Assembly (NCBI GenBank): GCA_963555815.3
Contig: CAUVWX020000002.1
Location: forward strand, 128,001-192,000
DNA from: a bacterium
GTDB taxonomy: Bacteria; UBA8248; JACPRG01; G963555815
Direction: 5' to 3'
DNA length: 64,000 nucleotides
Made by a program: the position numbers and the translations under genes. The first letter of the stretch is position 1. Every line of letters starts with the position of its first letter. Shown here one piece after another: positions 32,910-55,713 of the stretch. Under the pieces are notes generated by a model. The model searched no databases and had not been told where the DNA came from. It worked only from the letters and a program-made list of their open reading frames with translations.

Positions 32910-32985
<76 letters not shown>

Positions 32986-33010
32986 ACCCCTTGTTTTTGA
33001 AGCAGTTACA

Positions 33011-34120
33011 CTACCCAATCTCAGCCGGACTTGCTAGAGTGTCTGTTTTTGTGTCTTCTTGGCTGTCGAGAAGCGCCACTGCCCGAGCCTTGTGTCGGTC
33101 AGTCAGGTGAGAGTACCTCATCACCATCCGCATGGTTTTATGGCCCAGTAACTCCCTGATGGTGTTCAAGTCCACTCCTGCCATTGCCAGGGCTGAGGCA
33201 AACTCATGGCGGGTGTCATGAAAGGTGTAGTCCCGAATACCGGCCCTCCGGACGCCGCTCTCAAAACCCTTCCGGATGCCTCGGATGGCCTCACCGTCGG
33301 GGCGGCAGAAGACATAGCCCCCATCTATACGGTAGGGAATTTCCTCCAGGATAGCACAGGCCGTCCCATTCAAAGGCATCGTCCTCCCCTCGCCGGACTT
33401 GGCTTCTCGCACCCGAAGGAATCTACCCCTGAGATCCACATCGCGCCACTCAAGCATAAAGATTTCACCGCGTCGTAGGCCGGTGTTGCGAGCGAAGTCA
33501 TAGATCCGCCTGATCCGGGGATGAAATTCTGTCTGAAGGCGTTCTCGCTCCTCGTCCTCCAGGATACGGCAACGGGCGTTGTTCTCCTTCAAGAACTTCG
33601 CCTTTACGACAGGGTTGGTAGTGACCTTCCCGTTCTCGATGGCCCGATTGAACATAGTTTTGAGCAGGGCCAACTCCCGGTTCACTGTTGCAGGCTTTCT
33701 CTTGGCCAGCCGGTCCGTCTGATAGCGCTGGACCATCTCGGGGGTGATGGCATCCAGGTACAAGTCCCCTAGGACAGGGAGGAGGGCCTTGAGGCTTGAT
33801 GTGTCCCGGAGGGCCGATCTCTTCCGTGCCGAATAGATCCGTGTGTATTCCTCGGCATACTGTCTGAGAGTGACCCGACGGACGGTCCGCCGGTCCAGGT
33901 GCTTTCCCTCGGCGATCTCGGTCCGTCTCTTGCCCATGACCGTTACGGCCAAGCGTTTGTTGGGGCCGATCCACTCCCGGGTTCTCCTGCCCCCGACGTA
34001 GTAGTCGAGAAAGTAATTACCCCGATTGTCCTGGCGCACACCAGGAGGCAGGTGGAGGGCCTTGCGTCTGGACAGCCCACGTGGCTTCCGAGAGGTCTTG
34101 GGTTCGTTAGGTGCGTTCAT
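33011..34120 (-). CDS. Tyrosine recombinase / phage integrase
   Basis: KPATVNRELA, TGLRRGEI, FHDTRH, ELLGHK and MRYSH give an intact R-H-R-H-Y set; N-terminal arm-binding-like segment. Confidence 0.95.
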   Translation of the reverse strand: MNAPNEPKTSRKPRGLSRRKALHLPPGVRQDNRGNYFLDYYVGGRRTREWIGPNKRLAVTVMGKRRTEIAEGKHLDRRTVRRVTLRQYAEEYTRIYSARKRSALRDTSSLKALLPVLGDLYLDAITPEMVQRYQTDRLAKRKPATVNRELALLKTMFNRAIENGKVTTNPVVKAKFLKENNARCRILEDEERERLQTEFHPRIRRIYDFARNTGLRRGEIFMLEWRDVDLRGRFLRVREAKSGEGRTMPLNGTACAILEEIPYRIDGGYVFCRPDGEAIRGIRKGFESGVRRAGIRDYTFHDTRHEFASALAMAGVDLNTIRELLGHKTMRMVMRYSHLTDRHKARAVALLDSQEDTKTDTLASPAEIG

Positions 34121-34311
34121 GGCCTTTTCCCCTGTCTCCTTTGTCGTCTGGCCTTTGCCCCGGCCTCCCTGTCCAAGCCCTGGGCGATGAACCGCCGGGC
34201 CACCACCGAGATGTTAGCCCGCTCCCGCTCGGCGATGGCCTCCAGGAGGCGGTAGTCATCAGCACTGATGCGAAGATGCAAGCCAAGTTCATATCTGGTC
34301 CGGTTTCTCAT
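34117..34311 (-). CDS. Ribbon-helix-helix (CopG-like) DNA-binding protein
   Basis: LHLRISADDYRLLEAIAERERANISVVARRFI fits the RHH pattern; its stop overlaps the integrase start (ATGA). Confidence 0.7.
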   Translation of the reverse strand: MRNRTRYELGLHLRISADDYRLLEAIAERERANISVVARRFIAQGLDREAGAKARRQRRQGKRP

Positions 34312-34347
34312 GTAGAACAAAATAGGACAAAAATCTACTGGATTCAA
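34312..34347 (-). promoter_or_regulatory. Sigma70-like promoter for RHH-integrase, probably leaderless, overlapped by repeats
   Basis: Minus strand: TTGAAT (34347-34342), 17 nt, TATTTT (34324-34319), 7 nt, ATG. It also contains a GTAGA/TCTAC inverted repeat and a G(A/G)ACAAAA direct repeat. Confidence 0.55.
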
Positions 34348-34355
34348 GCCTTTTT

Positions 34356-34565
34356 CTACGTTCGCTCCCGAGCAGGAGTCTTTCCTTTCTCAATAACATC
34401 GTCGAGGTCGGCCAGGTCAAACCTCAGGCTTCGGCCCATCTTCACCTTGGGGATGCGACCCATGCTGGCCCACTGGCGGACGGTCCATTCGGCCAGGCAC
34501 AAGTATTCAGCGGCCTCAGCGGCAGTCAGGAGGCGCTTTTTCAGGCTACGGTCGGGGGAGGTCAT
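34356..34565 (-). CDS. Excisionase-family helix-turn-helix protein
   Basis: LLTAAEAAEYLCLAEWTVRQW...GRIP.VKMGRSLRF fits the HTH_17 pattern. Confidence 0.88.
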   Translation of the reverse strand: MTSPDRSLKKRLLTAAEAAEYLCLAEWTVRQWASMGRIPKVKMGRSLRFDLADLDDVIEKGKTPARERT

Positions 34566-34723
34566 TTTGCTTTTACCTCAGATCCGCCCAATCTGTTCTC
34601 CCCACTCCGCATTCCGCAAGTTGACCTGATTTGCGGTTTGAGGAAGTTCTATGCTCGCTCATTTCCTTTTCGCAAACCGCAGCCCCCCTATAGGGGCTGC
34701 GGTACGCGGAAGAGCGGCACCTG

Positions 34724-35857
34724 TTATGCGGATGGCCCATTATCGGCTGGCCCCTCCTCTACCCAATACACCCGTGAAATTCTCGGCCCATCTGCCTTGA
34801 CCAGTCCTTCGCCCTTAGCCTTTTTCATGGCCTCTTGCGCCGTCCTCTCCCTCCACCCAAGGCGAGCCTCAAGGGCTTGAAAGATAGGTTTCCATCCCTG
34901 CACCTTCCCGTCATCCGTTAGTTGCTGAAGCTCAACCACTGTGTCCCTCACTGCCTTGGCGCGCCATTCGTCCTTCCCCGGGCCTATGAGCCCTTGCACC
35001 CGATGCCATCCTGCTTCTTGTGGGAAGAGGAGCTCCAGATTCGGGGGAAGCTGCCTATAACGGGCCTTGGTGAAGTAGGCATTGACGAGCACGCCCTCCG
35101 CGTCCCCCTGTTTCCGCTCAAGGGTCAGGCGGGCGTCGCACCAGTCAAGGGGCCTAACACTTCCCCTGAACCTGTGCTCAGTGCTGCGGTCCTGCGACTT
35201 GTTCCAGTTATGGCTCAGGATGAGACCGCCACCCAGCTTGCGGTAGAGGTGGCGTAGCCCCGTGAGGATGGGCTCCCAGTCCTGCTCGGAGTTAATGTCT
35301 CCTGACATCATCTCCCTTACCGGGTCTAGGATGAGCACGTCGGCACCAAAATCCTCCGAAACCTGCCCCAGTCTCTCTAGACCTTCCACTCGGTCCAGCT
35401 TGAGTCCATCGGCCATGATGAGGCCGAAGCGTCCCATAGCGTCACGGAGCGGCGCGCCGGGGCCTTCAAGCAACATCTCTAGCCGCTGTTTGTAGAGCCC
35501 CTTGTGTCCCTCACCTGCGATGTAAAGAACACGCCGAGGGCCACCTGTGGGGAGCTCAAGAAAGTCCCGCCCAGCCGCCAGGCTCAGTGCTAGCTCTAAG
35601 AGGAGCCAAGTCTTTGTGGCCCCGTAGGATCCGTCGATGCTAAGGGCGGTCTTCCGGAGGAAGAATCCATCGCCCCAGAGGCGTTCAGGGAGGGAAATTT
35701 TTGTCGCTAGAAGCTCTTCTCCTGTAATGACTGTCAAGCTCCCGGATTCACTGGACGTAGGGTCATGCGAGGCTGGAGAGCTCGTCACCTTATACTGGGC
35801 AGTGTGGATAGCCATGAGGGCCTCGGGTCCCTGAACGGGTGTACATGTCATTGACAT
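34724..35857 (-). CDS. AAA_25 / RepA-like SF4-type helicase ATPase with C-terminal winged-helix-like region
   Basis: Walker A-like GSYGATKT, VLYIAGE, Walker B VLILDP, LSHNWNK and RGS motifs; no primase domain. Confidence 0.8.
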   Translation of the reverse strand: MSMTCTPVQGPEALMAIHTAQYKVTSSPASHDPTSSESGSLTVITGEELLATKISLPERLWGDGFFLRKTALSIDGSYGATKTWLLLELALSLAAGRDFLELPTGGPRRVLYIAGEGHKGLYKQRLEMLLEGPGAPLRDAMGRFGLIMADGLKLDRVEGLERLGQVSEDFGADVLILDPVREMMSGDINSEQDWEPILTGLRHLYRKLGGGLILSHNWNKSQDRSTEHRFRGSVRPLDWCDARLTLERKQGDAEGVLVNAYFTKARYRQLPPNLELLFPQEAGWHRVQGLIGPGKDEWRAKAVRDTVVELQQLTDDGKVQGWKPIFQALEARLGWRERTAQEAMKKAKGEGLVKADGPRISRVYWVEEGPADNGPSA

Positions 35858-38971: not shown

Positions 38972-39721
38972 ATGTTTCCGGAACTTGCCCTAAAGCTGGC
39001 ACCTATTCTCGATGCCTATTTCCCCCCGGAGGACGTACGGGAGTTGGCGGCCCTTTTCGACATCAACCTTACTTCGACTGTGGACCACCAACCACGAATG
39101 TTGTCGGTCGCACGAGAGCTCACGGAGACGCTCGAGCAGGGGAACACCCGCCGGCTCCTCGACAGCCTACTTGACCTAGCGGAAAGTAGAAACAACGAGA
39201 GCGTAGCCCATACTACGTTTGAACGGCAAACCTTCCATCAGGAAATGAGCGGCGTGGTTCGGGAGGCTAAGGAGCTCCTAGAAACCTCGGTAGCGCCCCC
39301 CGAAATCGCCGTGGCGGCCGGAAGCGTCTTCTCGGCCAAGTCTAGGGTCCGCGAGATTCTCGAGACGGCAACAGACAGCATATTCGTTGTAGATCCTTAC
39401 GTGGGGCTTGGAACGCTGGACTGTCTAAGGAATCTTACAGTTCCGATCCGCCTGCTTACGGGCACCCAGCCGAGCTCCATCGAGACGGATTTTGATCGGG
39501 CGGTCCAATCCTTTTGCGCGGAAGGGCACACGCTGCAAGTAAGGCAGGTGGGGCAACTCCACGACCGTCACCTAGTTTTCAACGATCGCTGTTGGCTCGT
39601 TGGCGGATCATTGAAGGACGCCGGGAAGAAGCCCTTCAACTGCATCGAGATCACCGACGAGAAAGTTCTTGTAGTCACCGACTTGGAAGCCAAGTGGCAG
39701 GGCGGAACTCCGTTCCCCTAA
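38972..39721 (+). CDS. Cassette gene 3: helical N-terminal domain plus C-terminal PLD-like domain
   Basis: IFVVDPYV and LHDRHLVFNDRCWLVGGSLKDAGKK (HDR-type PLD-like motif). Confidence 0.7.
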   Translation: MFPELALKLAPILDAYFPPEDVRELAALFDINLTSTVDHQPRMLSVARELTETLEQGNTRRLLDSLLDLAESRNNESVAHTTFERQTFHQEMSGVVREAKELLETSVAPPEIAVAAGSVFSAKSRVREILETATDSIFVVDPYVGLGTLDCLRNLTVPIRLLTGTQPSSIETDFDRAVQSFCAEGHTLQVRQVGQLHDRHLVFNDRCWLVGGSLKDAGKKPFNCIEITDEKVLVVTDLEAKWQGGTPFP

Positions 39722-39772: not shown

Positions 39773-39794
39773 AGACCTAAATGAGCCATCCAGT

Positions 39795-39898
39795 GGTCCT
39801 GAGAAATTTTGGGTTCAGGGTTTGTTGTGGTTGGGACTCCGCCTCATCCGGGGGGTGTGGTGGGGGCCTCCCCCCCTCTCGGGGAATGGGGCTTTTCG
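39795..39898 (+). repeat. Island ~100-bp repeat, copy A
   Basis: GGTCCTGAGAAATTTTGGGT...GGGACTCCGCCTCATCCGGGGGGTG..TGGGGGCCTCCCCCCCTC, similar to the copies at 46350 and 55426. Confidence 0.75.
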
Positions 39899-39958
39899 GC
39901 GACGGCAGCCCACCTTGGCTGACCTGGTCTCGACGCTAAGGAGAAAGAAATGGAAGGT

Positions 39959-41533
39959 CTAGCGGTCCCCGAGCTCTTGGAGGAGGTTTTCAACTTCGGT
40001 CGCTATTGGGTGTCCTATCCTGCGGGAGATCTCAAGTGCCTCTCTGGCGTAGCGGATGGTCTCACCCCTTTGGCCCTGTTGATTTGCAAGGAGGGCGAGG
40101 TTGAAGAGCGTCCCTGAAACATCTGGCTCTTTGCCAAGTCTTCTTGCAATCGCAAGACCCTCCTGGAAGAGCCTTTCGGCCTCGTCGAAGCGGCCACGCT
40201 GCGCGGCGACTACTCCCAGGTTACCCAGCGTACTTGCGACATCTGGCTCATTTCCAAGTTTCTTATCAATCGCCAGGCTTTCCCGGAAAAGCCTTGCGGC
40301 CTCTTCTAAGCGCCCGCGCCTGTCGGCGACCAAGCCGAGGTTGTTCAGCGACCCTGCGACGCCTGGCTCGTCGCCAATTCTCCTCTTAATCGCTAGGCTC
40401 TCCTGGTGGAGCCTCTCGGCCTCGTCGTAGCGACCCCGGCTGCCGGCGACCAAACCGAGGCCACACAGCGACCCTGCGACGCCTGACTCATTGCCAAGTC
40501 TCCTCTCAATCGCCAGGCTCTCCTGGTAGAGTCTCTCGGCCTCATCGAAGCGACCGCGGTTACGGGCGACCTCGCCGCGGTTATTTAGCGCCGCTGCGAC
40601 GGTCCCTTCGTCGCCAAGTCTCCTTGCAATCTCCAAACTCTCCCGGTAGAGCCTCTCGGCCTCGTCGTAGCGCTCTTGCCTCCCGGCGACAATGCCGAGA
40701 TTATTGAGGACCTCCCCCGTCCCCTTTTCGTCTCCTCTCTTTGTGAAAACAGAAAGGGCGTGACGTCCCGCCTCCTCCGCCTCGTCCCACCTCCCGCGGC
40801 TTTCAAGGACCGCTCCAAGGTTTTGCCAGGCCTCGGCATAGTCCGGGTCAAGGGTGAGGGCCTGTTGATAGAGTGCAATGGCCTCATCCCAGCGGTTTTG
40901 GTCATAGGCCTCTCTTCCCTTTCCATGTAGCGCATAAGCATCAAAGGTCTTCGTCGCAGGCTTCTCGATCTTCTCCCTTGTCTCCTCAGGAACTTCTATC
41001 TTCTCTCCAGGAGGCAAGGAGGCCACCTCGCCGCCTATCACCTGCCGGTTCAGGACCTCAACCGCGTCAAGAGCAAGCGTCGCAAAAGCCTCAAAGAGAC
41101 GACCGTCCACCGGACTTACAAGGCTTGAAGCTCCGAGGACCGTTCCTGTCTCAACATCGACAAAACGGATGTTAACGTTGACACTTCCCGCAAAGATGAC
41201 AAAGGAGCCAAGACCCATGACCTCCGCCCCAAGCTGTTCTCCCAGCTGGGCGGCCTTCTCTTCGTTAAAGAGGTCAGAGAGGGAGAGACGAAGCTCATCC
41301 ACCAGCTTCTTCCACTGAGCCCGCTCTATCACCTGGATGCCTGGGACCTCGGAGAGCTTTCCAGCGAGGGTTTCGGGCACATTGAGGCCGATCCAGCTGA
41401 ATTCTTCCTTCAGGCTGCCCCCTGACTGGTTCTCTAGGTCCAGGACGGCAATCCGGCGGGCCCCCTCGGCAGGAAGCGCGAGGAGAAGTGAGAAAAGGAG
41501 GACGACGAGAGACGTTCGGCGAAGGACCATCAA
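39959..41533 (-). CDS. Exported CsgG/FlgO-like N-terminal domain plus tetratricopeptide repeat protein
   Basis: Signal peptide; IAVLDLEN, VIER and IRFVDVETG motifs; then ~40-aa TPR units (LNNLG.VA..RGR.DEAERLYQESLAI). Confidence 0.85.
   Translation of the reverse strand: MMVLRRTSLVVLLFSLLLALPAEGARRIAVLDLENQSGGSLKEEFSWIGLNVPETLAGKLSEVPGIQVIERAQWKKLVDELRLSLSDLFNEEKAAQLGEQLGAEVMGLGSFVIFAGSVNVNIRFVDVETGTVLGASSLVSPVDGRLFEAFATLALDAVEVLNRQVIGGEVASLPPGEKIEVPEETREKIEKPATKTFDAYALHGKGREAYDQNRWDEAIALYQQALTLDPDYAEAWQNLGAVLESRGRWDEAEEAGRHALSVFTKRGDEKGTGEVLNNLGIVAGRQERYDEAERLYRESLEIARRLGDEGTVAAALNNRGEVARNRGRFDEAERLYQESLAIERRLGNESGVAGSLCGLGLVAGSRGRYDEAERLHQESLAIKRRIGDEPGVAGSLNNLGLVADRRGRLEEAARLFRESLAIDKKLGNEPDVASTLGNLGVVAAQRGRFDEAERLFQEGLAIARRLGKEPDVSGTLFNLALLANQQGQRGETIRYAREALEISRRIGHPIATEVENLLQELGDR
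40050..40770 (-). repeat. Intragenic 120-bp tandem repeats encoding TPR units
   Basis: A GAGCCTCTCGGCCTCGTCG-like motif recurs at about 40169, 40289, 40409, 40529 and 40649. Confidence 0.85.
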
Positions 41534-41746
41534 GCCTTTCTCCTAAAAGAAGGTCTTAATGATATCATTTACAGAATTATCTGAGGAGGATTTTTCGATA
41601 CGGATCCACGTCAGGATGGGATGGAAAACCTTGTTGCCTTCTTCGCTAAATTCACGCTGAAGCGAGAGGACAAGCCCAAAGAAACGGCAATTGATGTTAA
41701 GGTTTAATAGGAAGCTTCAAATCTATTTTCCGAGGTCAGTAGTCTA

Positions 41747-44617
41747 ATGCCCCCTTTTGAAGTTCGTGAAGAGGTTCTAAACGTTGTTCTAGCCAACTTA
41801 CTCGAAGAGCGCGGTTTGCTCTCTGTTCCAGAGACGATCCGCCGCTCGGTGAGAGGTCGCAAGCACCGCTTGCCCGACGTGACTGTAGCAGACCTGTGGG
41901 GGATCCGAATAGTTATTGAAGGACGGGTTGGAAGAACTCCAGGGATTCGAAGGTCACTCCTCCACGATTCTCGGATGCGAATTGAGGAGGGGATTTGTCC
42001 TATTTGCCTGTCCGTTCTATATCCTGCCGAACTTCGTGTGGTCACTTCGATGCCGTTGCTCAAGAGGACGATGGCGCGTGAGTCGCTAATCGTTCGAGTT
42101 ATCTCAGAAAGCAGCGACGGCGATTGGGCTGATACCACAGTTGACGGACTATCAGAAATCCTTCGACGCAGTTACGAGCTCCTGGTTAGCGAAGATGTGG
42201 TGGCGAGTGCGGTTGGGGAGTTGGAGGAAAGCATCGACACAGCCAGCGAGATCCTTGTTTCGGCTCAGGCAGCAGCCCCAAGACTAAGGGACCTTCTGGG
42301 AATTCGAGAAGAGACAGACGGTGAGGATTTACGGATTTCGAGAATCGCAGCATTAACCCTAGTTAATGCCATGATTTTTCAACAGACCCTTGTCGCGCGG
42401 GCCCCCCGCGTCTGGCCACTAAAGCGATCGATTGCCCGACCGCATGTCGCAGAAGCACTTACCAATGCATGGGAGATCATTATCGGAGAAATTGATTACG
42501 TTCCTATTTTCAGTCTAGCCCTTAAGATAGTGGATGTATTATCAGGCAACCCCGGCTTAAATGATGCACTCCGAACACTTGCAGAATCTGCCATGCGGAT
42601 TACCGGCCGCCGAGCTGCGCTCAGACACGATTTAATGGGACGCATCTATCACCATCTATTGGCTGACAGGAAGTATTTTGGCGCCTACTATACTACGGTT
42701 CCAGCGGCAACCCTACTACTCAAACTCACCCTTGATCCGTCGCATTTTCGGGTCAACTGGAGCAATCTCGATCAAGTTTGTGAACTTCGTATAGCTGATC
42801 TGGCTAGCGGAACAGGGACACTTCTGAAGGCTGCTCTCCAGAGTATTGTGGATAACCACGTGCGTTCCCGTGCGGAAGATAAGGATTCGCCAAATCTTCT
42901 ATCATTGCACCAAGCCTTGGTTGAAGATAGCTTATGGGGTTTCGATGTGGTTCCTTTCGCAATTCATCTTGCGGCATCAGCTCTTGCGATGCACGAACCG
43001 GACGCGCAGTTTAGAGATATGCGTTTGCATACTATGTCACTAGGTGGTGGCCGCTGGCCCAACTTGGGCAGTTTAGATTTTCTGTCAGGGAGCCGCGTTA
43101 GGGTGCAAGCAGATCTCTTTGGCAGTCCTACTGGACCTGGCCGCGTGACTGCCGCAGGAGAAGTGAGGGAGACGGTCGAAGTTCCGCTGTTGGATCTCTG
43201 CGTTATGAATCCACCATTTACCAGAAGTGTGGGTGGGAACCTGCTTTTTGGCCATGCTCCTCCACGTCAGCGCCGGCAAATGCAAGATGAATTAGGTAAC
43301 ATTGTTAGACGAAGAGGGGTTCCTGCTAATATTACGGCTGGCCTCGGGTCCGTGTTCGCCGCTTTGGCCCATCAGTATATCAAGCCTGGGGGATACTTAG
43401 CGTTAGTGCTCCCCCGCGCACTATTATCGGGAGTCGCTTGGGGGCGAACCCGGCAGCTCATTGGCACCTACTACCACGTTGAATACGTGATCGTTAGCCA
43501 TGAGCCTGGGCGATGGAACTTCTCAGAAAACACAAGTCTCAGTGAATGCCTGATTGTCGCTAGACGCCTTCAAGAAGGAGAAATTCCAGTTGAGACCAAG
43601 ATCGTTAACTTATGGGTTCAGCCAAAAACGAGTATTGAGGCGTTAACCGTCTCTGATCTCGTTCGCCGGACACCAGGAGTCCATTTAGACGCGGAAACCG
43701 GGATTGACGAGTTGCGGACTGAAACACAGAAATTCGGTGAAGTAATCATCTGCCCACCAGAACGGATCCGAGTAGGGCAGTGGAATCAAGAGGCCGCCTT
43801 CTCGCAGACAGACCTTAACCGTGTGGCATATCATTTAAAGGAAGGCCAAATTTACATTCCTGGTCGAGGCGCAATTGCTAGTATCCCAAGGATTCATCTC
43901 CAAGGATTAGGGGAACTCGGATCCGATAGAAGAGACATTCATGATGGATTTCGGCCTACACCCGATCCAACTCCATACGCGGCGTTCTGGGGACATTCTA
44001 CTGATTTGGTTCGGCACTTGTCCCAGACACCCAACCGCCATTTGTCGCCACTCGGACGCCCCCTTCCGGGTCGCCCGCGTCGAGATCCTCATCTTCTGTG
44101 GTCACGTTCGGGACGATTGTTAATTGCTGAGCGACTGAGGCTTAATACAGTTCGGGTATTGAGTGTCTATCTTGACCGACAAGTTCTCTCCAATACTTGG
44201 TGGCCCTTCAGTGGCTTTCACGGGGGGCAGCGTTCCAGCGGAAGAAATCGAACGCATCCTCGTGCTTTGGCTCAACTCTACCTTGGGAGTGATTTCCTTG
44301 ATAGCAGCTCGGGTTGACACTGAAGGTGCATGGGTCGACCTCAAAAAGCCTAGTCTCGAGGCTACCATTGTGATGAATGCGTCGGTTCTTTCAAGGGAAC
44401 AAGGGAACAACGTCGAATGCTGATTGAGACCTATGAGGAAATATCAGAGCAAGATTTTCTTCGGCTTCCAGAAATAAACCACGATGTTGTGAGGAGCCGG
44501 GTTGATTCGGCCATAATGACAGCTTTTGGCTGTTCAGAGGATCTCGCCGTACTCCGCGAAATGTTGTCGGTTGAGCCCCTTATGCTCGGTTCCCCGGTAG
44601 TAACGGGCACTTCGTGA
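41747..44617 (+). pseudogene. Type IIG-like fused restriction-modification enzyme (N6-adenine MTase) with two frameshifts near the 3' end
   Basis: N-terminal PD..E (LPDV..VIEGR), GAYYT, DLASGTGTLL and MNPPF motifs. The tail continues in ORFs 44163-44423 and 44417-44617. Confidence 0.8.
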
Positions 44618-44759
44618 GTCCTCGGTCAAGTAAGCCCGGAGAGCGCTTAACAATACGTACTTAGCTTACTTAACTAACCCATTGCTCAAATTTCTTTAGC
44701 CTTTTTGATTCCAGTTGTTCCAATGGGACACCACAGTCGTTACAAAGATAAGATGGAGA

Positions 44760-45428
44760 CTAATTGATATCTAGCTCCAGCTTAAGAGGCCGCCCAATGC
44801 AGGAGAAGCAGCCACATTCTCCGCATCGGGGACACACATGGACTGTTTCAACTCTCTTCCCACAATGTGAACATTTGAAAAAGAAGAGCCTTTTCTTGAA
44901 GACCGTAAAGAGGTAGATACCTCCCAGCCATATTATTAGTGCACTACCCCAGAAGACAAGGGCGGTCCGCCAAAGAGGAAACCCTTCCCCCGAGGGAGCC
45001 AATATATTTGTCAAAGACCAAACGGCCCACAAAACTAAGACCAGAAAAGAAATACCTAATATAAACCCGGTCAGCCACTTGCCGGTTCGTAAACCAGCCT
45101 TTTTTAAAAAGTAGCTTAAGGGTTTCTGCGCATTTGCTTTAGCGGTCTCCTGGGCCCGATCCCGCCATTTCCGCATTCTTTGAGATAGCTTGGGATTTTT
45201 TTCTAATACGGAGATTAAACATCTGTCATATTCCGCTCGTTTCTCCGGATCCCCCAATATCTCCCGGGCCTCTATAATCGTTATTGTTTTTTCTTTTGCA
45301 TCGGCAGATTGGTTTTTGTCTGGGTGCCATCTTAAAAGTTGTCTACGAAACGTTTTTTGAACCTCAGATGGAGAAGCGCCTCTGGAAATATCAAGCACTT
45401 GATAATAATCGACAATTTGTTCCATCAC
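44760..45428 (-). CDS. DnaJ (J-domain) membrane protein with C-terminal Cys-rich Zn ribbon
   Basis: DYYQVL...WHPDKN...ILGDPEKRAEYD, two TM segments, and CSHC..CPRCGECGCFSC. Confidence 0.8.
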   Translation of the reverse strand: MMEQIVDYYQVLDISRGASPSEVQKTFRRQLLRWHPDKNQSADAKEKTITIIEAREILGDPEKRAEYDRCLISVLEKNPKLSQRMRKWRDRAQETAKANAQKPLSYFLKKAGLRTGKWLTGFILGISFLVLVLWAVWSLTNILAPSGEGFPLWRTALVFWGSALIIWLGGIYLFTVFKKRLFFFKCSHCGKRVETVHVCPRCGECGCFSCIGRPLKLELDIN

Positions 45429-45650
45429 CTAAGCTTGAAATCCTCGCCGCAGTTCAGGTCCAGATGTCTCCCTTATCTCAAATCCCTTTTCGCTTTTTCT
45501 TGGGGACTCTTCTGATTCTCTATTGGGCCAATTTTGTTCATTTATAGGGATTTGTTTGACTTGTATCACGGCTTCATAAAGTCGTTGCTTCGCGGGTGGA
45601 TAAAACTTATACATCCAAGCACGGCTTTGATTGCTCGGATAGAATAAGAT

Positions 45651-46073
45651 CTATTTCATTCTCCCATTGGTGGTGCCTCCAAAGGCGTCCTTCAGAACGG
45701 TAATGCCGATGGCGACACAGAAGAGGAACGCCCCCCACACAACCACATCAACGGACCAGCTCTTCCCGAGGAAATCCACCATAACTACAGGGAAAGCTAC
45801 CCCTAGCGCGAAGAAGAACAGGGCTGTTCCTATCACTTTCACTTGTTTCGAGCTACCAGTGGCCTCGAAGAGGCCATCCCGTTCAACCGCGGGCTCAAGA
45901 GGAGGGGGGAGAGAGGGCCTATGTTCTCGGTTGTCGTCGCCAGCATCCTCAGGGCCGTCTCGTCGAACGCTGGCCTGATCATCACTTATATGTGTCTCCT
46001 CCCTCCAGGACTCCGTGTAGATGGTCAAGAAGACCACGAACCCTATTAGAATCAGAGTCACTATCAGTGCCAT
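45651..46073 (-). CDS. Hypothetical membrane protein
   Basis: 140 aa with three hydrophobic segments. Confidence 0.55.
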   Translation of the reverse strand: MALIVTLILIGFVVFLTIYTESWREETHISDDQASVRRDGPEDAGDDNREHRPSLPPPLEPAVERDGLFEATGSSKQVKVIGTALFFFALGVAFPVVMVDFLGKSWSVDVVVWGAFLFCVAIGITVLKDAFGGTTNGRMK

Positions 46074-46349
46074 TCCGTCAGCTTCCTAGATATCTCCACC
46101 GTTCCTTCGCGGCCCAGGTCTTGCCTGAGCCAGCACCGAAGATACTTCCAGAAGGCGTCGTCGTGGGAGTAGGGGTAGTAGCCGCCCTCGCGGGAGAGTG
46201 GCCCCCCCTCCGCTGCCTCCCAGACAGTATCCTAGTGCGCTGCAGGTCCTCGGTCACCCCCTTTTTCAAGGACCGTCTGACACCCCCTGGAGGAGGACTT
46301 TCCGATATGGAATGGCAGCTGGAGGAGCTTTGGGTAGCGATAGGGTAGG

Positions 46350-46454
46350 GGTCCCGAGAAAATTTGGGTATTTGGTATGGTCAGGATGGGACCCCCCCCT
46401 CATCCTGGGGGTGGTGGGGGGCTACCCCCCTCCGGGGGATGAGCTTTTTCGGGG
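46350..46454 (+). repeat. Island ~100-bp repeat, copy B (overlaps the polB 3' end)
   Basis: GGTCCCGAGAAAATTTGGGTATTTGGTATGGTC...GGGGGGCTACCCCCCTCCGG. Confidence 0.8.
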
Positions 46455-48633
46455 AAGCCCCACCTTCCATCACTATCCAGAGTTCTTTCACAGCTCGATC
46501 AAGAAGCTCCGTATAGGCCTCAGCATCGTAGAGGTCCTCTGGGCGGATGAAGGGGGCCGCCCTGACTCGGGTCTCTTTCAAAGGGTCTCTGACATTCTTG
46601 AGGAGAAAGGACACCTTCTCTCCGGGATGCAATCTGATTCCGGCCCTTTCATACTCTCTTGCCGCAAGAGCAGTTCGGCTGTCCACCTTGTAGTCCGATG
46701 GTTTACGGGTAAGACGTCGGCTCAGGAGAAGGAGGTGGCAAGGGACATTTCCAGACCGGAGCTCGTCCCGCCACCGCTCCCATTCTTCCTTTGCCTTAGG
46801 GATAAGGTCCTGGTACTCCTTCAGGTTCTTAGCGGTGGTGAGAATCTTCAGCACTGAAAGCTGGGCCTCCTGGATGAAGCGGGGTGTGTCCCGTCTTCGA
46901 TAGGCAAGGCCTCTCGCCTTTAACCCCCCATCCCGAAAGAGTCCGAAGAATCGGCTTGGGACTCCAACCCCAGGCCTCTGCTTTGAGGGGAGGAAATGGA
47001 CCCACCGGTAGATCCCCTCAAGGGCCATCGGGATACGAGTCCTTGTCTCAATCTCCCGAATGAGCTCCAAAAGGACCTCCTGCCTCATGTCCCCACCCTG
47101 GAGCCAGAGGGAGTCGGTCAGGGCGTGGAGCATCCGGTACCCTTTCCCCTCCGCCAACTCTTTGGCCTGAAGCAAAGTCTCTCGTCCGATGGCTGTTACT
47201 GCTTCATGGGCCTCGATCCTTCCGAACCGGGCATTTCGATATCCGAGATACCCAAAACAGGTCACAAGCATCCACTTGAGGGCCGTCTGACGTCGGTCAA
47301 AGCGAATCCGGTCCTCTTCTGTCTTCGCTTCTCGCCTACGCCGCTTGTACTTTTCTCTTAGCTTGAGGATAGGGGCTAAGACTCTGGGAACCAGGCCTTC
47401 TCTACGCCTACAAAGGTGATAGCCCGACTCAGGAACTCTTTCGCCGTCCTCCTTGCAACAAGAACACAGGACCGTTTCAGGTGAGATGTTATGAGCCATC
47501 ATGATGGCGGGGTACATGGAGGCGAAATCGATCTCGGCCACGTCCTCGAAGGCCCCCACTTGGGGAGCATAGGTCAAGCCTCCCTTGTCGGCGATGAAGA
47601 GGGTCCAGGGACTCTTGAAGGCTTCAGGTTCTCCCTTTCGCCAGGGAACGAGGATGTTCTGGCTGAAAGCCGCATCGAGTTGCATGGAGGAGATGGCTGT
47701 TCCGGGCGATGTCCGAGCAGAAGTCTGGACCGGAACCTTTGAAAGACGGGCGAGCTCAACAATGCCCTCCAAACCCCCTTCCTTGTGCATGAAGGAGGCT
47801 TTCTGGTCGATGTGCCAGCGGCCATAAAGGGGGTAGCGAGGGGGTGAATAGAGAATTTGGCCATAGGTGAAGTAAGAGCGCCCCTCAGTCCTCAAGAAGC
47901 GTGAGGGGGGCTTTGGGTCTCGGTCGAGACGAAGGCTCTTTCTGGCAAGTCGCTCGGCCTGAAGGAGCCAGGGAAAGAGAAGAGTATCTCCCTGAGTAGT
48001 GAGGATGAGGTCGGGGTCAGCGAGGTCGAGTAGGGAGTTTAATGCTGAGACAAGCTCTTCTGGTCTCTCAGACTCAATCTCGTAGTCTCTTCCATCCCAG
48101 ATGGCTCTGATCCCTGGAAAACGGCCCCGAAAATCCCCCAGAGGTTCAAGCTCCAGTACCTGAAGATGAGGGAGCGTGAACTCCTCCCAGGGCAACTCAG
48201 CTGCCTCAATCTCTTCGACGGTATCCCCTGTGACCCCTGCCCGGATCCGCCCGCACGGAAAGAGGCCTGTCTCATAGAGATAGGCCTGAGGAAGGGGGAG
48301 GTCGGCGTTGTAGATGCGAAGAGGACCGTCGTACTCAGGAAGGAATTGAGAGAGCTTTTGGTACTGGGGTCCCCCCGAAACTTTAAGCTCAAGAACCCGG
48401 ATATTCTTGCCGGACCAGAACTCGACCTTCTCTGTCCACCTGGCCCCTTGGATGAGACGCTTGCCCTTGAGGGAGGTCACAAGGCGCCTCAGAGGTGTTT
48501 CCTTTCCTTCCAGGTATATCCTGGGCCGGTAGGCGTGGCGAAGGAGTTTCGGGCCCTCTTTGGTCAGGATCCAAAGCCGAGCCTCCCCACCTACGATGTA
48601 GATATCGAAGAGGGTCCCTTCAACGGTTCCCAT
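46381..48633 (-). CDS. Family B DNA polymerase, PolB2/G2-like, with degenerate exonuclease and altered motif C
   Basis: Motif A DFASMYP, motif [13 protein letters not shown], motif C HALTDS (versus YGDTDS), HNISPET..C.CC and K.RG...RRRDTP. Confidence 0.88.
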
Positions 48634-48937
48634 TGGCCCTCAGGAGGTTTATTTCCTGCCTCAAGGCGGCCACTTCATTCATCAGGATCTCGACTTCGGT
48701 CCGAAGGGGCAAAAACTTCTCGATGAACTTCTGTTGTTCGATGAGGGCAGAGAGGAGGATTAAGTCCATTGGCCAGGGATGGCCTGAATAGACGGATGGG
48801 GCCACATGGTGCTTTCCGAAGGCGAAGAGCCGATCGAAGGCATCCTGATCTTCTTTCCTGAGAGCCCGCCTGAACTGGTTTAATGCCCTTTCCTCCTGCG
48901 CAAGGACCTGGCTGAAGGGAGCTACCGTTCGTCCCAT
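48620..48937 (-). CDS. Small alpha-helical PolB2-associated protein (arCOG07300-like)
   Basis: MGRTVAPF...FRRALRKEDQDAFDRLF pattern; overlaps both neighbouring genes. Confidence 0.75.
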   Translation of the reverse strand: MGRTVAPFSQVLAQEERALNQFRRALRKEDQDAFDRLFAFGKHHVAPSVYSGHPWPMDLILLSALIEQQKFIEKFLPLRTEVEILMNEVAALRQEINLLRANGNR

Positions 48938-49602
48938 CGTGTTTCCTCCCAATGGGCAAGGAGCGGAAGGGTGCCTCCCTCCGTGGGCCTGAGGGTTTGC
49001 GTTAGCGGTTTCAGAATTCTCACCCTTGGCCCCCACTTATCCTTCTCCGCCAGGGCCACGGTCTCGACCAGGGAAGGGAGCTCACGAAAAAGGGTTCGCC
49101 TCTCCCTGGCACCGGCCACTGAAGGCTGGGCAATAAGGAGGGGGGCACTGATTCTCAGGAGTGCTGTTTGAAGCCGCTTGAAGAGAGCCTTGACCTCCTG
49201 CCAGGGAATGCCCTCATCCATGAAGGTGTTGAGGGGTCCTGAGACGACAACGAGTGCAGGGTCTTTCTCTAAGAGTCCTTGAACCCTTTCCTCTAGAAGA
49301 ACCGTGAGCTGATGACAGGTAAAGGCCCTGGAGAGAAGAAAACCTTCCCGGTTGAGAATGTCTTCTGGGTGAAGGCCAATCCGCCGTGCATAACGGGCCA
49401 CTATGTAGGGGTCAAAAGCATTGGCCCCGTCCACGAAGAGGACCCGGCCCCCAGAAGCGGCTAGGACTCCGGAAAGAAGGGTTGCCGCAGGAAGAGCGAG
49501 ACTACCTCCAAGGAGAACTCGACCCCTTGGGATCTGGATCCGCACCTCGCCCATAAGGGCTTCAAGGGGAACGCCAGGGGAGACTTGGACGGTGGGGATC
49601 AT
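48922..49602 (-). CDS. Inactivated RadA/RecA-fold protein (ImuA-analogous)
   Basis: VLFVDGANAFDPY and SRAFTCHQL RadA-like motifs; no Walker A GxxGxGKT. ATG 49602 is preferred because a promoter lies just upstream. Confidence 0.75.
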   Translation of the reverse strand: MIPTVQVSPGVPLEALMGEVRIQIPRGRVLLGGSLALPAATLLSGVLAASGGRVLFVDGANAFDPYIVARYARRIGLHPEDILNREGFLLSRAFTCHQLTVLLEERVQGLLEKDPALVVVSGPLNTFMDEGIPWQEVKALFKRLQTALLRISAPLLIAQPSVAGARERRTLFRELPSLVETVALAEKDKWGPRVRILKPLTQTLRPTEGGTLPLLAHWEETRWDER

Positions 49603-49633
49603 AGTGTGGAGCCTCAACAATAGAGTGGTAATA

Positions 49634-49665
49634 CGAAAATATAGCGAAAGCAAGGGGTCTGTCAA
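49634..49665 (-). promoter_or_regulatory. Sigma70 promoter of the RadA-like/PolB operon with a direct-repeat operator candidate
   Basis: Minus strand: TTGACA (49665-49660), 16 nt, TATATT (49643-49638). CGAAA repeats at 49634 and 49645 straddle the -10. Confidence 0.6.
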
Positions 49666-49909
49666 GATAGATTCGTCCTGGGAGACTAATTTCATGTAAT
49701 TAGCTGATCTATTGAAGATTAATTGGATGGAGGTTGAGGTTCTAGGTCGCTACCTACTGTTGCTTCGCGTTAGCGGCGCCTTGCCCTGAAACGTCGGAAA
49801 ACCCTTGCCTCCCGTCAGCACTTCAACTAATACTTGATTGTATTGCAGCAAGAGAACCCTTTTGGAGTCTTTCTCCCTAGAGCCCTCACGAGTGCCTAAG
49901 GAGCCTAAC

Positions 49910-50317
49910 ATGAAGAAAAATTTTATCGGATTCTTGTTCCTTGTGCCTCTACTCATAACGGCATGCACAGTGCCGTACGATGATCTCAACACTGCGCCAA
50001 GCTCCCTAACCCCTGGTGTAGTGAAAACCGAGATCGTCACAGGTGAAACAACACAAGCGGAAGTGCTGGAAGTTTTTGGCCCTCCTGATCTTGTCACCGT
50101 TGATAAAGGCATTGAGTTGTGGGGATACGACAAGATCTCTCGCGAAACAGCGTATTCTTCGTTCGGTATTTTGGCCGGTGGCCTTGCCGGTCCAGCCGTT
50201 GCTGGTGGGGTCGTGCGGGGGGGGAAGACCACCCAAACCACAAAGACCGTGTTCCTCCTCATTTATTTCAAGAATGACGTGGTTGTCGATCATAAACTTA
50301 GTGCCACAAAATTCTAA
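49910..50317 (+). CDS. Lipoprotein, SmpA/BamE-like
   Basis: RBS aaggag, lipobox ITAC, and G.TTQAEVLEVFGPP...W.Y motif. Confidence 0.75.
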   Translation: MKKNFIGFLFLVPLLITACTVPYDDLNTAPSSLTPGVVKTEIVTGETTQAEVLEVFGPPDLVTVDKGIELWGYDKISRETAYSSFGILAGGLAGPAVAGGVVRGGKTTQTTKTVFLLIYFKNDVVVDHKLSATKF

Positions 50318-50341
50318 CGGAGCCAAAAGGGGAATAAACTT

Positions 50342-50953
50342 GTGAGACCTTTGAAACATTCCCTCCTAATCCTCGTGGTGTTGATTCTATATGCTTGCGC
50401 TGCTGGACCAGGAGTTGGCCCTGGCCAGTTGGCGACAAGGGCCATAGAAACCCGCATTATCGATGCGGATTTTGACACAGCGTATCGAGCCGCCAGCCAC
50501 GCGATGTTCGCCTTGGGCTTCACCATAAGTCATACCGAGAAAGAATCTGGTATTTTGGTTGGGAGATTTACTGATCTCCATAAGGGCCGAAAGGTTGGTT
50601 ATGTGTTGTTGTTTGGAGTGGTGGGTGCACTGATTGATACTAAGGAGACGTTCGATGTGACCCTTTTTCTAATCCCGAGACGTGATGAAGAGAATAAAAC
50701 GACGCTTCGAATCCAGATGGCAATAGATGGTAAGCTAAAGCTGAACAACGAAGTCGTAAGCAGGATTTGGATAGTTACCCAACGCGCGGCGATGTTGGAG
50801 GCGGGCGTAACTATTCCGGAAGAATTAGAGGAACAGTTCCAAAAGTTAGAAGAAGAAAGTGCCTCAGCACAAAATGTGGCACAAGAGGAATTTGAGAGGG
50901 AAGAAGCGGAAAGGAAAAAACACGACGAGTCTACTGGGCTAAAAAGGCCCTAG
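50342..50953 (+). CDS. Hypothetical lipoprotein
   Basis: Lipobox LYAC; RAIETR...GFTI...KESGIL segment; co-oriented with the upstream lipoprotein gene. Confidence 0.7.
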   Translation: MRPLKHSLLILVVLILYACAAGPGVGPGQLATRAIETRIIDADFDTAYRAASHAMFALGFTISHTEKESGILVGRFTDLHKGRKVGYVLLFGVVGALIDTKETFDVTLFLIPRRDEENKTTLRIQMAIDGKLKLNNEVVSRIWIVTQRAAMLEAGVTIPEELEEQFQKLEEESASAQNVAQEEFEREEAERKKHDESTGLKRP

Positions 50954-51029
50954 AATTACAAGACACTCAAATCAGTTCGGAGTACCCTGGTACCGCATAG
51001 AAGGTGATTTTAGCCACACCTTGTGTCTG

Positions 51030-51845
51030 TCACCCATTGGTCTCCTGGGTATTGACAAGCATCCCCTGAAGCATACGCACCGAGGCCGGCGCATGGCCCG
51101 CATAGTGGTTGTTGAAGTAGGCTAGGATATCAAGCTTCCGCTCTAGAAGATCCTGAAAGACAGGGACCCATCGGAGCAGATCTTCAGTGCGGTCAATCAC
51201 CACCCTGTCCCAGGTGTCGGTCATCCCCTCAATCTTTTTTCGATCGCCAAGCCAGCGGACGAAGACGAAATCTGCCGTCACAGGGTCCACCTTATTCACC
51301 AGCTCGTCGATCTTGTTCATCCAGGGGTGATCTATGAGTGTGAAGGCCACCCCGTGATCCCGTAGGATGCTCAGAAGCTCTTCTTCCACCCAGGCCTTGT
51401 TCCGCACCTCGACAGCAAAGCGATAGCCCTGGGGGAGCTTCCCGAGGAACTTCCTGAGGCGGTCGAAAAAGGGTTTCGGGCTGGGAAATCTCTTCCTGTT
51501 GAAGTAGGGGAATTGGAAGAGGAGCGGACTGAGTTTATCTTCTAAGAGGTCCATTACCCCAAGGAAGGTTCTAAGGTCCTCTCCGCAGTCCTGCAGTACT
51601 TTTTCATGAGTGATGACCTGGGGAACCTTGGCCGAGAAGACGAAACCATCGGGGAGCTTTCGCCTCCAGCCCTCAACTGTCCTGGCAGAAGGGCTCCTGT
51701 AGAAGGTGGCATCGCACTCGACAGTATTGAACTTCTGGGCGTAGGCTACTAGGTAGCCAGAAGGGCGGGTCCCAGGTGGGTAAAAACTCTTCCCCCATCC
51801 CTCCGCCGTCCAGCTTGAAGTCCCTAGTAACAGCCGTCCATTCAC
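51030..51845 (-). CDS. DUF72 family protein
   Basis: LGTSSW, FYP, FNTVECDATFYR.P, KVPQVITH, AVEVRN and YFNNHYAGHA motifs. Confidence 0.92.
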   Translation of the reverse strand: MNGRLLLGTSSWTAEGWGKSFYPPGTRPSGYLVAYAQKFNTVECDATFYRSPSARTVEGWRRKLPDGFVFSAKVPQVITHEKVLQDCGEDLRTFLGVMDLLEDKLSPLLFQFPYFNRKRFPSPKPFFDRLRKFLGKLPQGYRFAVEVRNKAWVEEELLSILRDHGVAFTLIDHPWMNKIDELVNKVDPVTADFVFVRWLGDRKKIEGMTDTWDRVVIDRTEDLLRWVPVFQDLLERKLDILAYFNNHYAGHAPASVRMLQGMLVNTQETNG

Positions 51846-55350: not shown

Positions 55351-55425
55351 TGAGAGTTTATCGTTGTCCTTCAGGACTTAAGAGTGGACAATTGTGCGGT
55401 GGTTCCCCAAGTGGAATTAAGTGAG

Positions 55426-55516
55426 GATCCCGAGAAAATTGGGGTATTTGGTATGGTCCAGGGGGGACTCCGCCCCTTTTTCGCCCCTGCATGGGGGGCT
55501 ACCCCCCCCTTCCGGT
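55426..55516 (+). repeat. Island ~100-bp repeat, copy C
   Basis: GATCCCGAGAAAATTGGGGTATTTGGTATGGTC...GGGGGGCTACCCCCCCCTTCCGG. Confidence 0.8.
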
Positions 55517-55666
55517 AGGAAGGACGGAGGGGTCTCCAAAAAGTCTCCAAATTGCACCCTTAAGGCGGTATGCTGCGGTATACGGTTGGGGACAGCTGAT
55601 TTCGGAATCCATTGATAATGTGGGGATTGAAAGCAACAGCGGGGGTCCGGAGATGGGCCAAAAACC

Positions 55667-55713
55667 GACTGGCAGTCATGAGGTCGGCGGTTCGATCTCG
55701 CTCAGCTACACAA
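55667..55713 (+). pseudogene. 3' half of a tRNA-Ala(GGC) gene (att-like remnant)
   Basis: GACTGGCAGTCATGAGGTCGGCGGTTCGATCTCGCTCAGCTACACAA has an anticodon arm with GGC, a T-arm GGTTCGA and a decayed acceptor end; no D-arm or 5' half upstream. Confidence 0.8.

Follow-up and report, generated by a model that had tools for sequence, protein, structure and literature searches.

The stretch analysed here, called the window, comprises 64,000 nt of a bacterial genome (positions 128,001 to 192,000 of contig CAUVWX020000002.1, assembly GCA_963555815.3). It carries a three-gene operon encoding a family B DNA polymerase of the PolB2/G2 group and two smaller partners, iRadA and PPB2, behind a promoter that shares a sequence motif with the promoter of the genome's lexA gene. 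A preliminary description, made from the letters alone, had seen in this operon a mobile, archaeal-type mutasome. Coordinates are window positions; G000 denotes the source genome, and C1 and C2 its contigs. The operon and its nearest features are as follows:

48922..49602, minus strand: iRadA gene, 226 residues from the ATG at 49602, RadA/Rad51-derived, without Walker A
48620..48937, minus strand: PPB2 gene (arCOG07300-type), 105 residues, MGRT start, helical with a long C-terminal helix
46381..48633, minus strand: PolB2/G2 family B polymerase gene, 750 residues, exonuclease motifs decayed
49638..49665, minus strand: sigma70-type promoter TTGACA-16-TATATT, 11 of 12 consensus matches
49634..49649, minus strand: candidate LexA operator TTTCG-N6-TTTCG, a direct repeat that straddles the -10
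51030..51845, minus strand: DUF72 gene (Pfam E 2e-58), a published PolB2 neighbour

The three open reading frames are co-oriented and overlap by 16 nt (iRadA/PPB2) and 14 nt (PPB2/PolB2), in agreement with the preliminary description. Two starts were considered for iRadA, that of the longest open frame at 49695 and the ATG at 49602. The latter has a GAGG sequence 9 bases upstream and agrees with the start of the iRadA proteins of relatives, while the start at 49695 is disfavoured because the promoter would fall inside the gene; the true start is probably 49602. The end of the DUF72 gene is 1.43 kb from this start, close to the 1.4 kb first given, with two opposite-strand genes in between, and partial DUF72 copies are found at C1:136589-136973 and about C1:1100585-1100750. 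Comparison of G000 with the related genome G002 gave ratios of non-synonymous to synonymous substitution (dN/dS) of about 0.08-0.11 for all three operon genes, which are under purifying selection.

The polymerase matches PF00136 at E 1e-35; among NCBIfam models, NF004416 fits it best (E 5e-123, versus E 4e-14 for Pol II models). Its nearest solved structures, both by sequence and by fold, are PolBs of Thermococcales. Motifs A (DFASMYP) and C (HALTDS) agree with the preliminary description, and residues H503 and D507 are invariant in all 35 aligned sequences. Motif B, which had been called intact, is not: it reads K453-WML-V-TC-F-G, with the Asn and Tyr of KxxxNSxYG replaced by Val and Phe, a pattern shared with haloarchaeal PolB2. 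D369, K453 and D507 are retained. Alignment to four exonuclease-intact PolBs bore out the reported loss of the acidic exonuclease residues (D to E163 and E to L165 in Exo I, D to L219 in Exo II), and the proofreading site is predicted to be lost. Ahead of the palm lie an FxxA-like segment, F339-KSP, and a D(K/R) motif, D349-K350, which is again invariant in 35 of 35 sequences. When the polymerase was modelled alone, residues 310-354 had a predicted local distance difference test (pLDDT) score below 50, which might fit a partner-binding segment.

The position of the polymerase within family B was analysed in an IQ-TREE tree (fast search) of 30 sequences drawn from the 60 polymerases gathered, in which haloarchaeal and other archaeal PolB2 stand in for the Sulfolobus islandicus enzyme Dpo2, absent from the tree. 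The window polymerase groups with three members of its family with a Shimodaira-Hasegawa-like support (SH-aLRT) of 100. The bacterial clade has a support of 90 and nests inside a clade containing archaeal PolB2 (SH-aLRT 100), while E. coli Pol II and six other archaeal PolBs fall apart from the window polymerase. This placement identifies it as a bacterial PolB2/G2, the assignment originally proposed; the complex was likely acquired by bacteria from archaea. Identity with E. coli Pol II (G1), a single-subunit enzyme with an intact exonuclease and DTD as motif C, was ruled out by the lost exonuclease residues, the HALTDS motif C and the tree placement.

The two upstream proteins were also found to be what had been suggested. 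iRadA matches Pfam Rad51 at E 4e-6, and a profile of 47 iRadA-like sequences matches RadA/Rad51 structures at E 8e-13, with 54 distinct sequences at E<=0.01. The Walker A motif (GxxxxGK[ST]) occurs in none of the 47 aligned iRadA core regions. PPB2 is predicted to be helical, with a 48-residue C-terminal helix (pLDDT 92); the fold search returned middling helical matches only (best Z 5.1; SigR N-terminal domain, Z 4.0) and was uninformative. Family profiles connect both proteins to genes at the same positions on two haloarchaeal plasmids: that of iRadA matches the genes ahead of PolB2 (E 3e-12 and 1e-9), and that of PPB2 the genes in PPB2 position (E 6e-31 and 4e-26). A pattern search of iRadA, which ends ...GTLPLLAHW..., and of PolB2 revealed no Q-led beta-clamp motif in the last 30 residues. 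In one PPB2 of another genome (L027, G016), the tail QQRLDF resembles the beta-clamp motif QxxLxF; this loose pattern is rare, being present in 4 of 72 PPB2 tails, and the clamp-motif search of PMC11791011 covered PolB2 and iRadA only.

A query of a species-genome collection with an alignment gave at least 583 confirmed matches among 600 stretches, out of an estimated 1800 or so, and bacterial PolB2 operons are accordingly widespread; a single-protein query of the same collection gave no match. The order iRadA-PPB2-PolB2 was found in 64 of the 92 loci examined. Loci without the full trio are mostly cut by contig ends; seven with at least 2 kb upstream have neither partner. Stand-alone or split layouts were recorded at L082, L089-L093 and L143, where neither iRadA nor PPB2 was detected in the 2-5 kb upstream of polB2. 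At L098 a single open frame joins iRadA and PPB2, a fusion variant described in PMC11791011, and in G045 both polB2 copies (L028 and L029) are broken into two frames near residue 395-400, on contigs that look duplicated. Neighbours of the 92 loci include LexA (28 loci), SRAP (5) and DUF72 (4), and 26 loci have a cassette layout that begins with lexA. No SRAP gene was found in G000, a genome 96% complete. Bacterial plasmids were absent among the matches listed (25 of 114 plasmid records), all 25 being haloarchaeal.

The promoter had been described as a strong sigma70 promoter. Its match to the consensus stands, and a TTGAC-type -35 is also present ahead of the operon in the relatives read; the number of hits in a promoter scan is not above chance (2 overlapping hits versus 3.3 expected). 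Its strength is another matter, as the promoter is probably repressed: an operator-like sequence, TTTCGCTATATTTTCG at 49649-49634, covers the -10. The sole lexA gene of G000 bears TTGAC-TTTCGTTTCGGTTTCG in its own promoter. Exact TTTCG-N6-TTTCG was found within 170 nt upstream of 3 of the 30 lexA loci of the class (G000, G001 and G045) and in no shuffled sequences; many other loci of the 30 have coding-like sequence directly upstream, with no promoter in view. The shorter form TTCG-N7-TTCG immediately follows the lexA -35 in all 5 further genomes of the family; the lexA promoter thus bears the motif in 7 of 7 family genomes, and in G045 as well. Ahead of iRadA, the exact short form was counted in 11 of the 29 loci that lack a cassette lexA, where shuffled sequences gave a mean of 0.23 and a maximum of 2 and other spacings gave 0-1; archaeal loci have it in 0 of 9 cases and lexA-first loci in 2 of 25. 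These 11 loci belong to six genomes of the window's class, window included, four Acidobacteriota and one Xenobia. Inspection by eye of the same place in other phyla revealed palindromes of other kinds: GAAC-N4-GTTC in Chloroflexi and Armatimonadota, a CTA(T/A)AC-N4-GTATAG type in Syntrophales-like loci and GTGA(A/C) types in Nitrospirae. Lineage-specific LexA control would give such a pattern. The LexA of G000 scores above the TIGR00498 cut-off, and LexA and RecA look intact. Because the repeat is shared by the operon and lexA promoters and overlaps the -10, TTTCG-N6-TTTCG is likely the LexA operator, and the operon is likely kept off by the host LexA except when DNA is damaged.

Taken together, these data make it probable that the operon is LexA-repressed and encodes a PolB2-iRadA-PPB2 extender complex. 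The gene membership and the shared promoter motif are observed; LexA binding, complex formation and activity are drawn from published models and from the Sulfolobus enzyme. On this basis, DNA damage would activate RecA, and cleaved LexA would leave TTTCG-N6-TTTCG. The three translationally coupled genes would then be expressed. The segment ahead of D349-K350 would serve PolB2 as its contact to iRadA, and one MGRT arm would be inserted by a trimer of PPB2. So assembled, the complex would elongate primer ends that are mispaired or next to a lesion, perhaps once the host DinB has done the insertion, and survival would be gained at the cost of mutations. The earlier wording, a proofreading-deficient damage-tolerance or mutator module, holds for the lost exonuclease residues; the term mutator needs amending, since the archaeal enzyme is accurate on undamaged DNA (PMC8764526).

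Several observations weigh against this interpretation. The NF004416 score is under the model cut-off (412 versus 516 bits), the FxxA-like segment reads FKSP where the common form is FK[TS]A, and neither iRadA nor PolB2 has a clear beta-clamp motif. Regarding the operator, scoring of 2.08 Mb with a matrix built from the relatives' lexA sites gave 95 sites, among which that of lexA came 5th and that of the operon 11th; some higher-ranked sites fall inside genes, and the motif alone is weakly specific. Of 14 genomes, 2 have the exact motif within 260 nt upstream of recA, and none of the 6 genomes of the family does; the repeats before the operon are degenerate in G003 and G005, and the motif-bearing kin are not independent. 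The top-scoring site in G000 lies at C2:594496, between divergent genes that are mazG-like and mutL-like by sequence.

The same operon could instead provide a fairly accurate, damage-induced polymerase for gap filling or fork restart, with little mutagenesis, the error-prone step being left to DinB. G000 does have a DinB-type gene of its own. It also carries, at C1:314386-315402 (L186), a gene for a DEDDh/DnaQ-family exonuclease (TIGR00573, above cut-off), with the second-best operator-like site between TTGACA and TACAGT; this exonuclease likely belongs to the same small LexA regulon and could possibly act as a proofreader in trans. We nevertheless consider an accurate polymerase unlikely in view of the exonuclease residues lost in PolB2 itself and of the lexA-first layouts, which parallel lexA-imuA-imuB-dnaE2.

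A second alternative concerns the surroundings of the operon, in which the following features were recognized:

32910..32985, minus strand: tRNA-Phe(GAA), left island boundary
33011..35857, minus strand: integration module with integrase, HTH_17 and AAA_25 genes
33011-34120, minus strand: tyrosine integrase of this module, next to tRNA-Phe
34356-34565, minus strand: HTH_17 excisionase-like gene of the module
34724-35857, minus strand: AAA_25 RepA-like gene of the module
39792..39936, no strand assigned: further copy of the GC-rich element
46322..46348, plus strand: 27-nt remnant of a second polB2 3' end (EELWVAIG and stop), convergent with the intact polB2 and abutting it
46349..46455, no strand assigned: GC-rich element of about 100 bp that follows polB2 3' remnants
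55425..55712, plus strand: further copy of the GC-rich element (55425-55507) and degenerate 3' half of tRNA-Ala (55667-55712), the probable right island boundary

The GC content is 54% over 33.0-55.7 kb, against 61% leftward, and polB2 ranks among the 7% of long genes with the lowest GC. In the same-genus genome G001 (95% complete), both flanks match at 91-93% and the operon is unmatched; its tRNA-Phe site holds a different cargo of about 11 kb, with radical-SAM. The 5' half of tRNA-Phe is duplicated at C1:974056-974100, and the sequence beyond is what follows the island in G001. Since this duplicate and its G001-like continuation sit on C1, the G000 assembly appears to be rearranged within the island, the two ends of which are on different contigs. 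In this genome, the sequence comparisons thus place the operon in an accessory island within an old tRNA-targeted region, as the term island-borne had implied.

Four further polB2 3' fragments were found on C1, at 128879, 137962, 933007 and 973598 (61-77% amino-acid identity), bringing the remnants to five with the 27-nt copy at 46322. Of the C1 fragments, three are about 0.2-0.7 kb away from duplications of tRNA-Leu, tRNA-Ala or tRNA-Phe. A DNA search revealed no such remnants in G001. Related elements likely once brought further copies, which were later deleted down to their 3' ends. Integrases 90% identical to each other are found beside different tRNAs, in the window (32945-34183, Phe-GAA) and at C1:125209-126446 (Leu-CAA), which suggests a recent change of target site. 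The reverse complement of the GC-rich element at 46349..46455, which has no Rfam match, encodes the last 25 or so codons of the intact polymerase. The idea that this repeat is a site-specific crossover in polB2 was rejected, as the remnants start at differing residues (about 592, 675, 685, 690 and 716).

With the integrase module at tRNA-Phe, the low GC content, the missing match in G001 and the remnants near other attachment-like sites, the operon might be a currently mobile mutator cassette that serves an integrative element from a strong, unrepressed promoter. The polymerase also has matches in four Leptospira phage records, and the one record read has iRadA-PPB2-PolB2-SRAP; therefore, the cassette can ride mobile DNA. 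SRAP follows the trio in L059, L141 and L144, of which one is a Leptospira LE1-type phage record and two are related viral contigs; L059 has an integrase upstream. Other data make present mobility improbable, more so than an accurate polymerase. The polymerase, present in 4 of 6 family genomes and 8 of 61 genomes overall (no match in G001 or G006), groups with its family (SH-aLRT 100), and family polymerases are 66-77% identical, a level similar to that of LexA (72-75%). No integrase family was found among 51 neighbour proteins at six relatives' loci, with flanks of up to 20 kb where the window integrase is 12 kb off; there, the operon sits among metabolic genes. The operon and its flanks are co-linear in contigs from four studies, one of which spans 41614-51285, the tRNA-Phe island has its two ends on separate contigs in this assembly, and the operator-like repeat covers the -10. 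Of the original claim of mobility, what these sequences support is a past association with integrative elements.

Finally, the cassette could be decaying and non-functional like its five truncated sister copies, a reading that the absence of a match in G001 or G006 and the derivation of the last 25 or so polymerase residues from an unrelated repeat would suit, yet which is very improbable given three open frames, the retained D369, K453 and D507, a dN/dS of about 0.1 and no operon indel among those listed for four other strains.

Beyond the probable LexA-repressed extender operon itself, we tentatively propose, as a possibility we would not favour at present, that tRNA-targeting elements repeatedly delivered a LexA-wired PolB2 mutasome (TTTCG-N6-TTTCG) as terminal cargo, of which one copy was kept under selection and the others were cut to their 3' ends. 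If so, bacterial PolB2 would be an evolvability cassette that is gained and purged in series, comparable to rumAB on SXT elements, and would belong to a small SOS regulon without recA.

Other genes of the island were noted in passing. At 41747-44423, an N6-methyltransferase-like gene of 856 residues is followed by a short open reading frame; this may be a restriction-modification gene that has been broken. Compared with the window, positions 44210 and 44392 carry deletions of 1 nt and 8 nt in three of four other strains. The gene at 39959-41533 combines a CsgG-like domain with 40-residue TPR repeats and has paralogues on both contigs, in a family expanded in the genus. The product of 38972-39721 has a weak match, below cut-off, to the VPA1262 N-terminal domain (E 1e-6), in a region that the contigs of three of the four other strains do not cover.

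The system as such is not new: the trio, its lexA, SRAP and DUF72 neighbours and a five-subunit model have been published (PMC4104785, PMC11791011). Makarova et al. (2014) described the trio in several bacteria, sometimes with lexA, for instance in Leptospirillum ferriphilum (PMC4104785). Kazlauskas et al. (2020) placed bacterial G2 within archaeal B2 and described Exo I as unconserved and motif C as having one Asp and a conserved His (PMC7544198). Timinskas, Timinskas and Venclovas (2025) named iRadA and PPB2 and modelled a heteropentamer of PolB2, iRadA and a PPB2 trimer for 40 species; they report iRadA-PPB2-PolB2 as the only order in bacteria, lexA, SRAP and DUF72 as neighbours, and a beta-clamp motif, on iRadA or PolB2, that only some of the members possess (PMC11791011). 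Their supplement includes Nitrospinota rows (12 occurrences of 'nitrospin'), one of which is a group 1a operon with HALTDS. A 2026 survey still terms the complex predicted (PMC12926913). The literature searched returned no functional study of a bacterial PolB2, as had been stated at the outset, and for PolB2, LexA and mutagenesis since 2020 it returned only the 2025 paper. Nothing relevant was found on this operator or on LexA motifs in Nitrospinota, in a literature search covering few subscription papers. The candidate operator and the island remnants, which the main text of PMC11791011 does not contain and which were not found in the literature searched, are modest additions. The first offers a candidate LexA operator in a lineage that has, as its closest named relative, one labelled Nitrospinota, and supports damage induction by sequence; the second offers traces of repeated carriage on integrative elements. 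The overall gain is incremental.

The window operon shares with the bacterial PolB2 mutasomes of group 1a the gene order, the MGRT arm, the motif C with one Asp and a His, the D(K/R) motif, the dead exonuclease, an iRadA without N-terminal domain or ATPase site, and a nearby DUF72 gene. It differs from them in having no lexA within the cassette, a distant host lexA being likely in control, no clear beta-clamp motif, and FKSP instead of FK[TS]A. Dpo2 of S. islandicus belongs to the same polymerase group and serves as working model: it is damage-inducible and responsible for targeted mutagenesis (PMC7390963), exonuclease-free and an efficient mismatch extender, with a role in mismatch and lesion extension (PMC8764526). 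In contrast to the window operon, which is likely under LexA control, Dpo2 is archaeal and has orc1/cdc6 neighbours. The alphaproteobacterial LexA box GTTC-N7-GTTC is a direct repeat with the same 11-bp period and TTC core (PMC3323433). The window half-site TTTCG differs from GTTC by its first base, T, and by a conserved G after the core, and is a candidate by sequence. The GTTC-N7-GTTC box is said to have been reported also for Acidobacterium capsulatum, by Mazon and co-workers in 2006. A parallel in layout is imuA-imuB-dnaE2, a cassette of three genes under LexA control in which an inactive RecA/RadA homologue comes first; in some genomes it is one of few LexA targets (PMC3323433). Its polymerase is of family C, whereas that of the window is of family B and is encoded without an inactive Y-family subunit.

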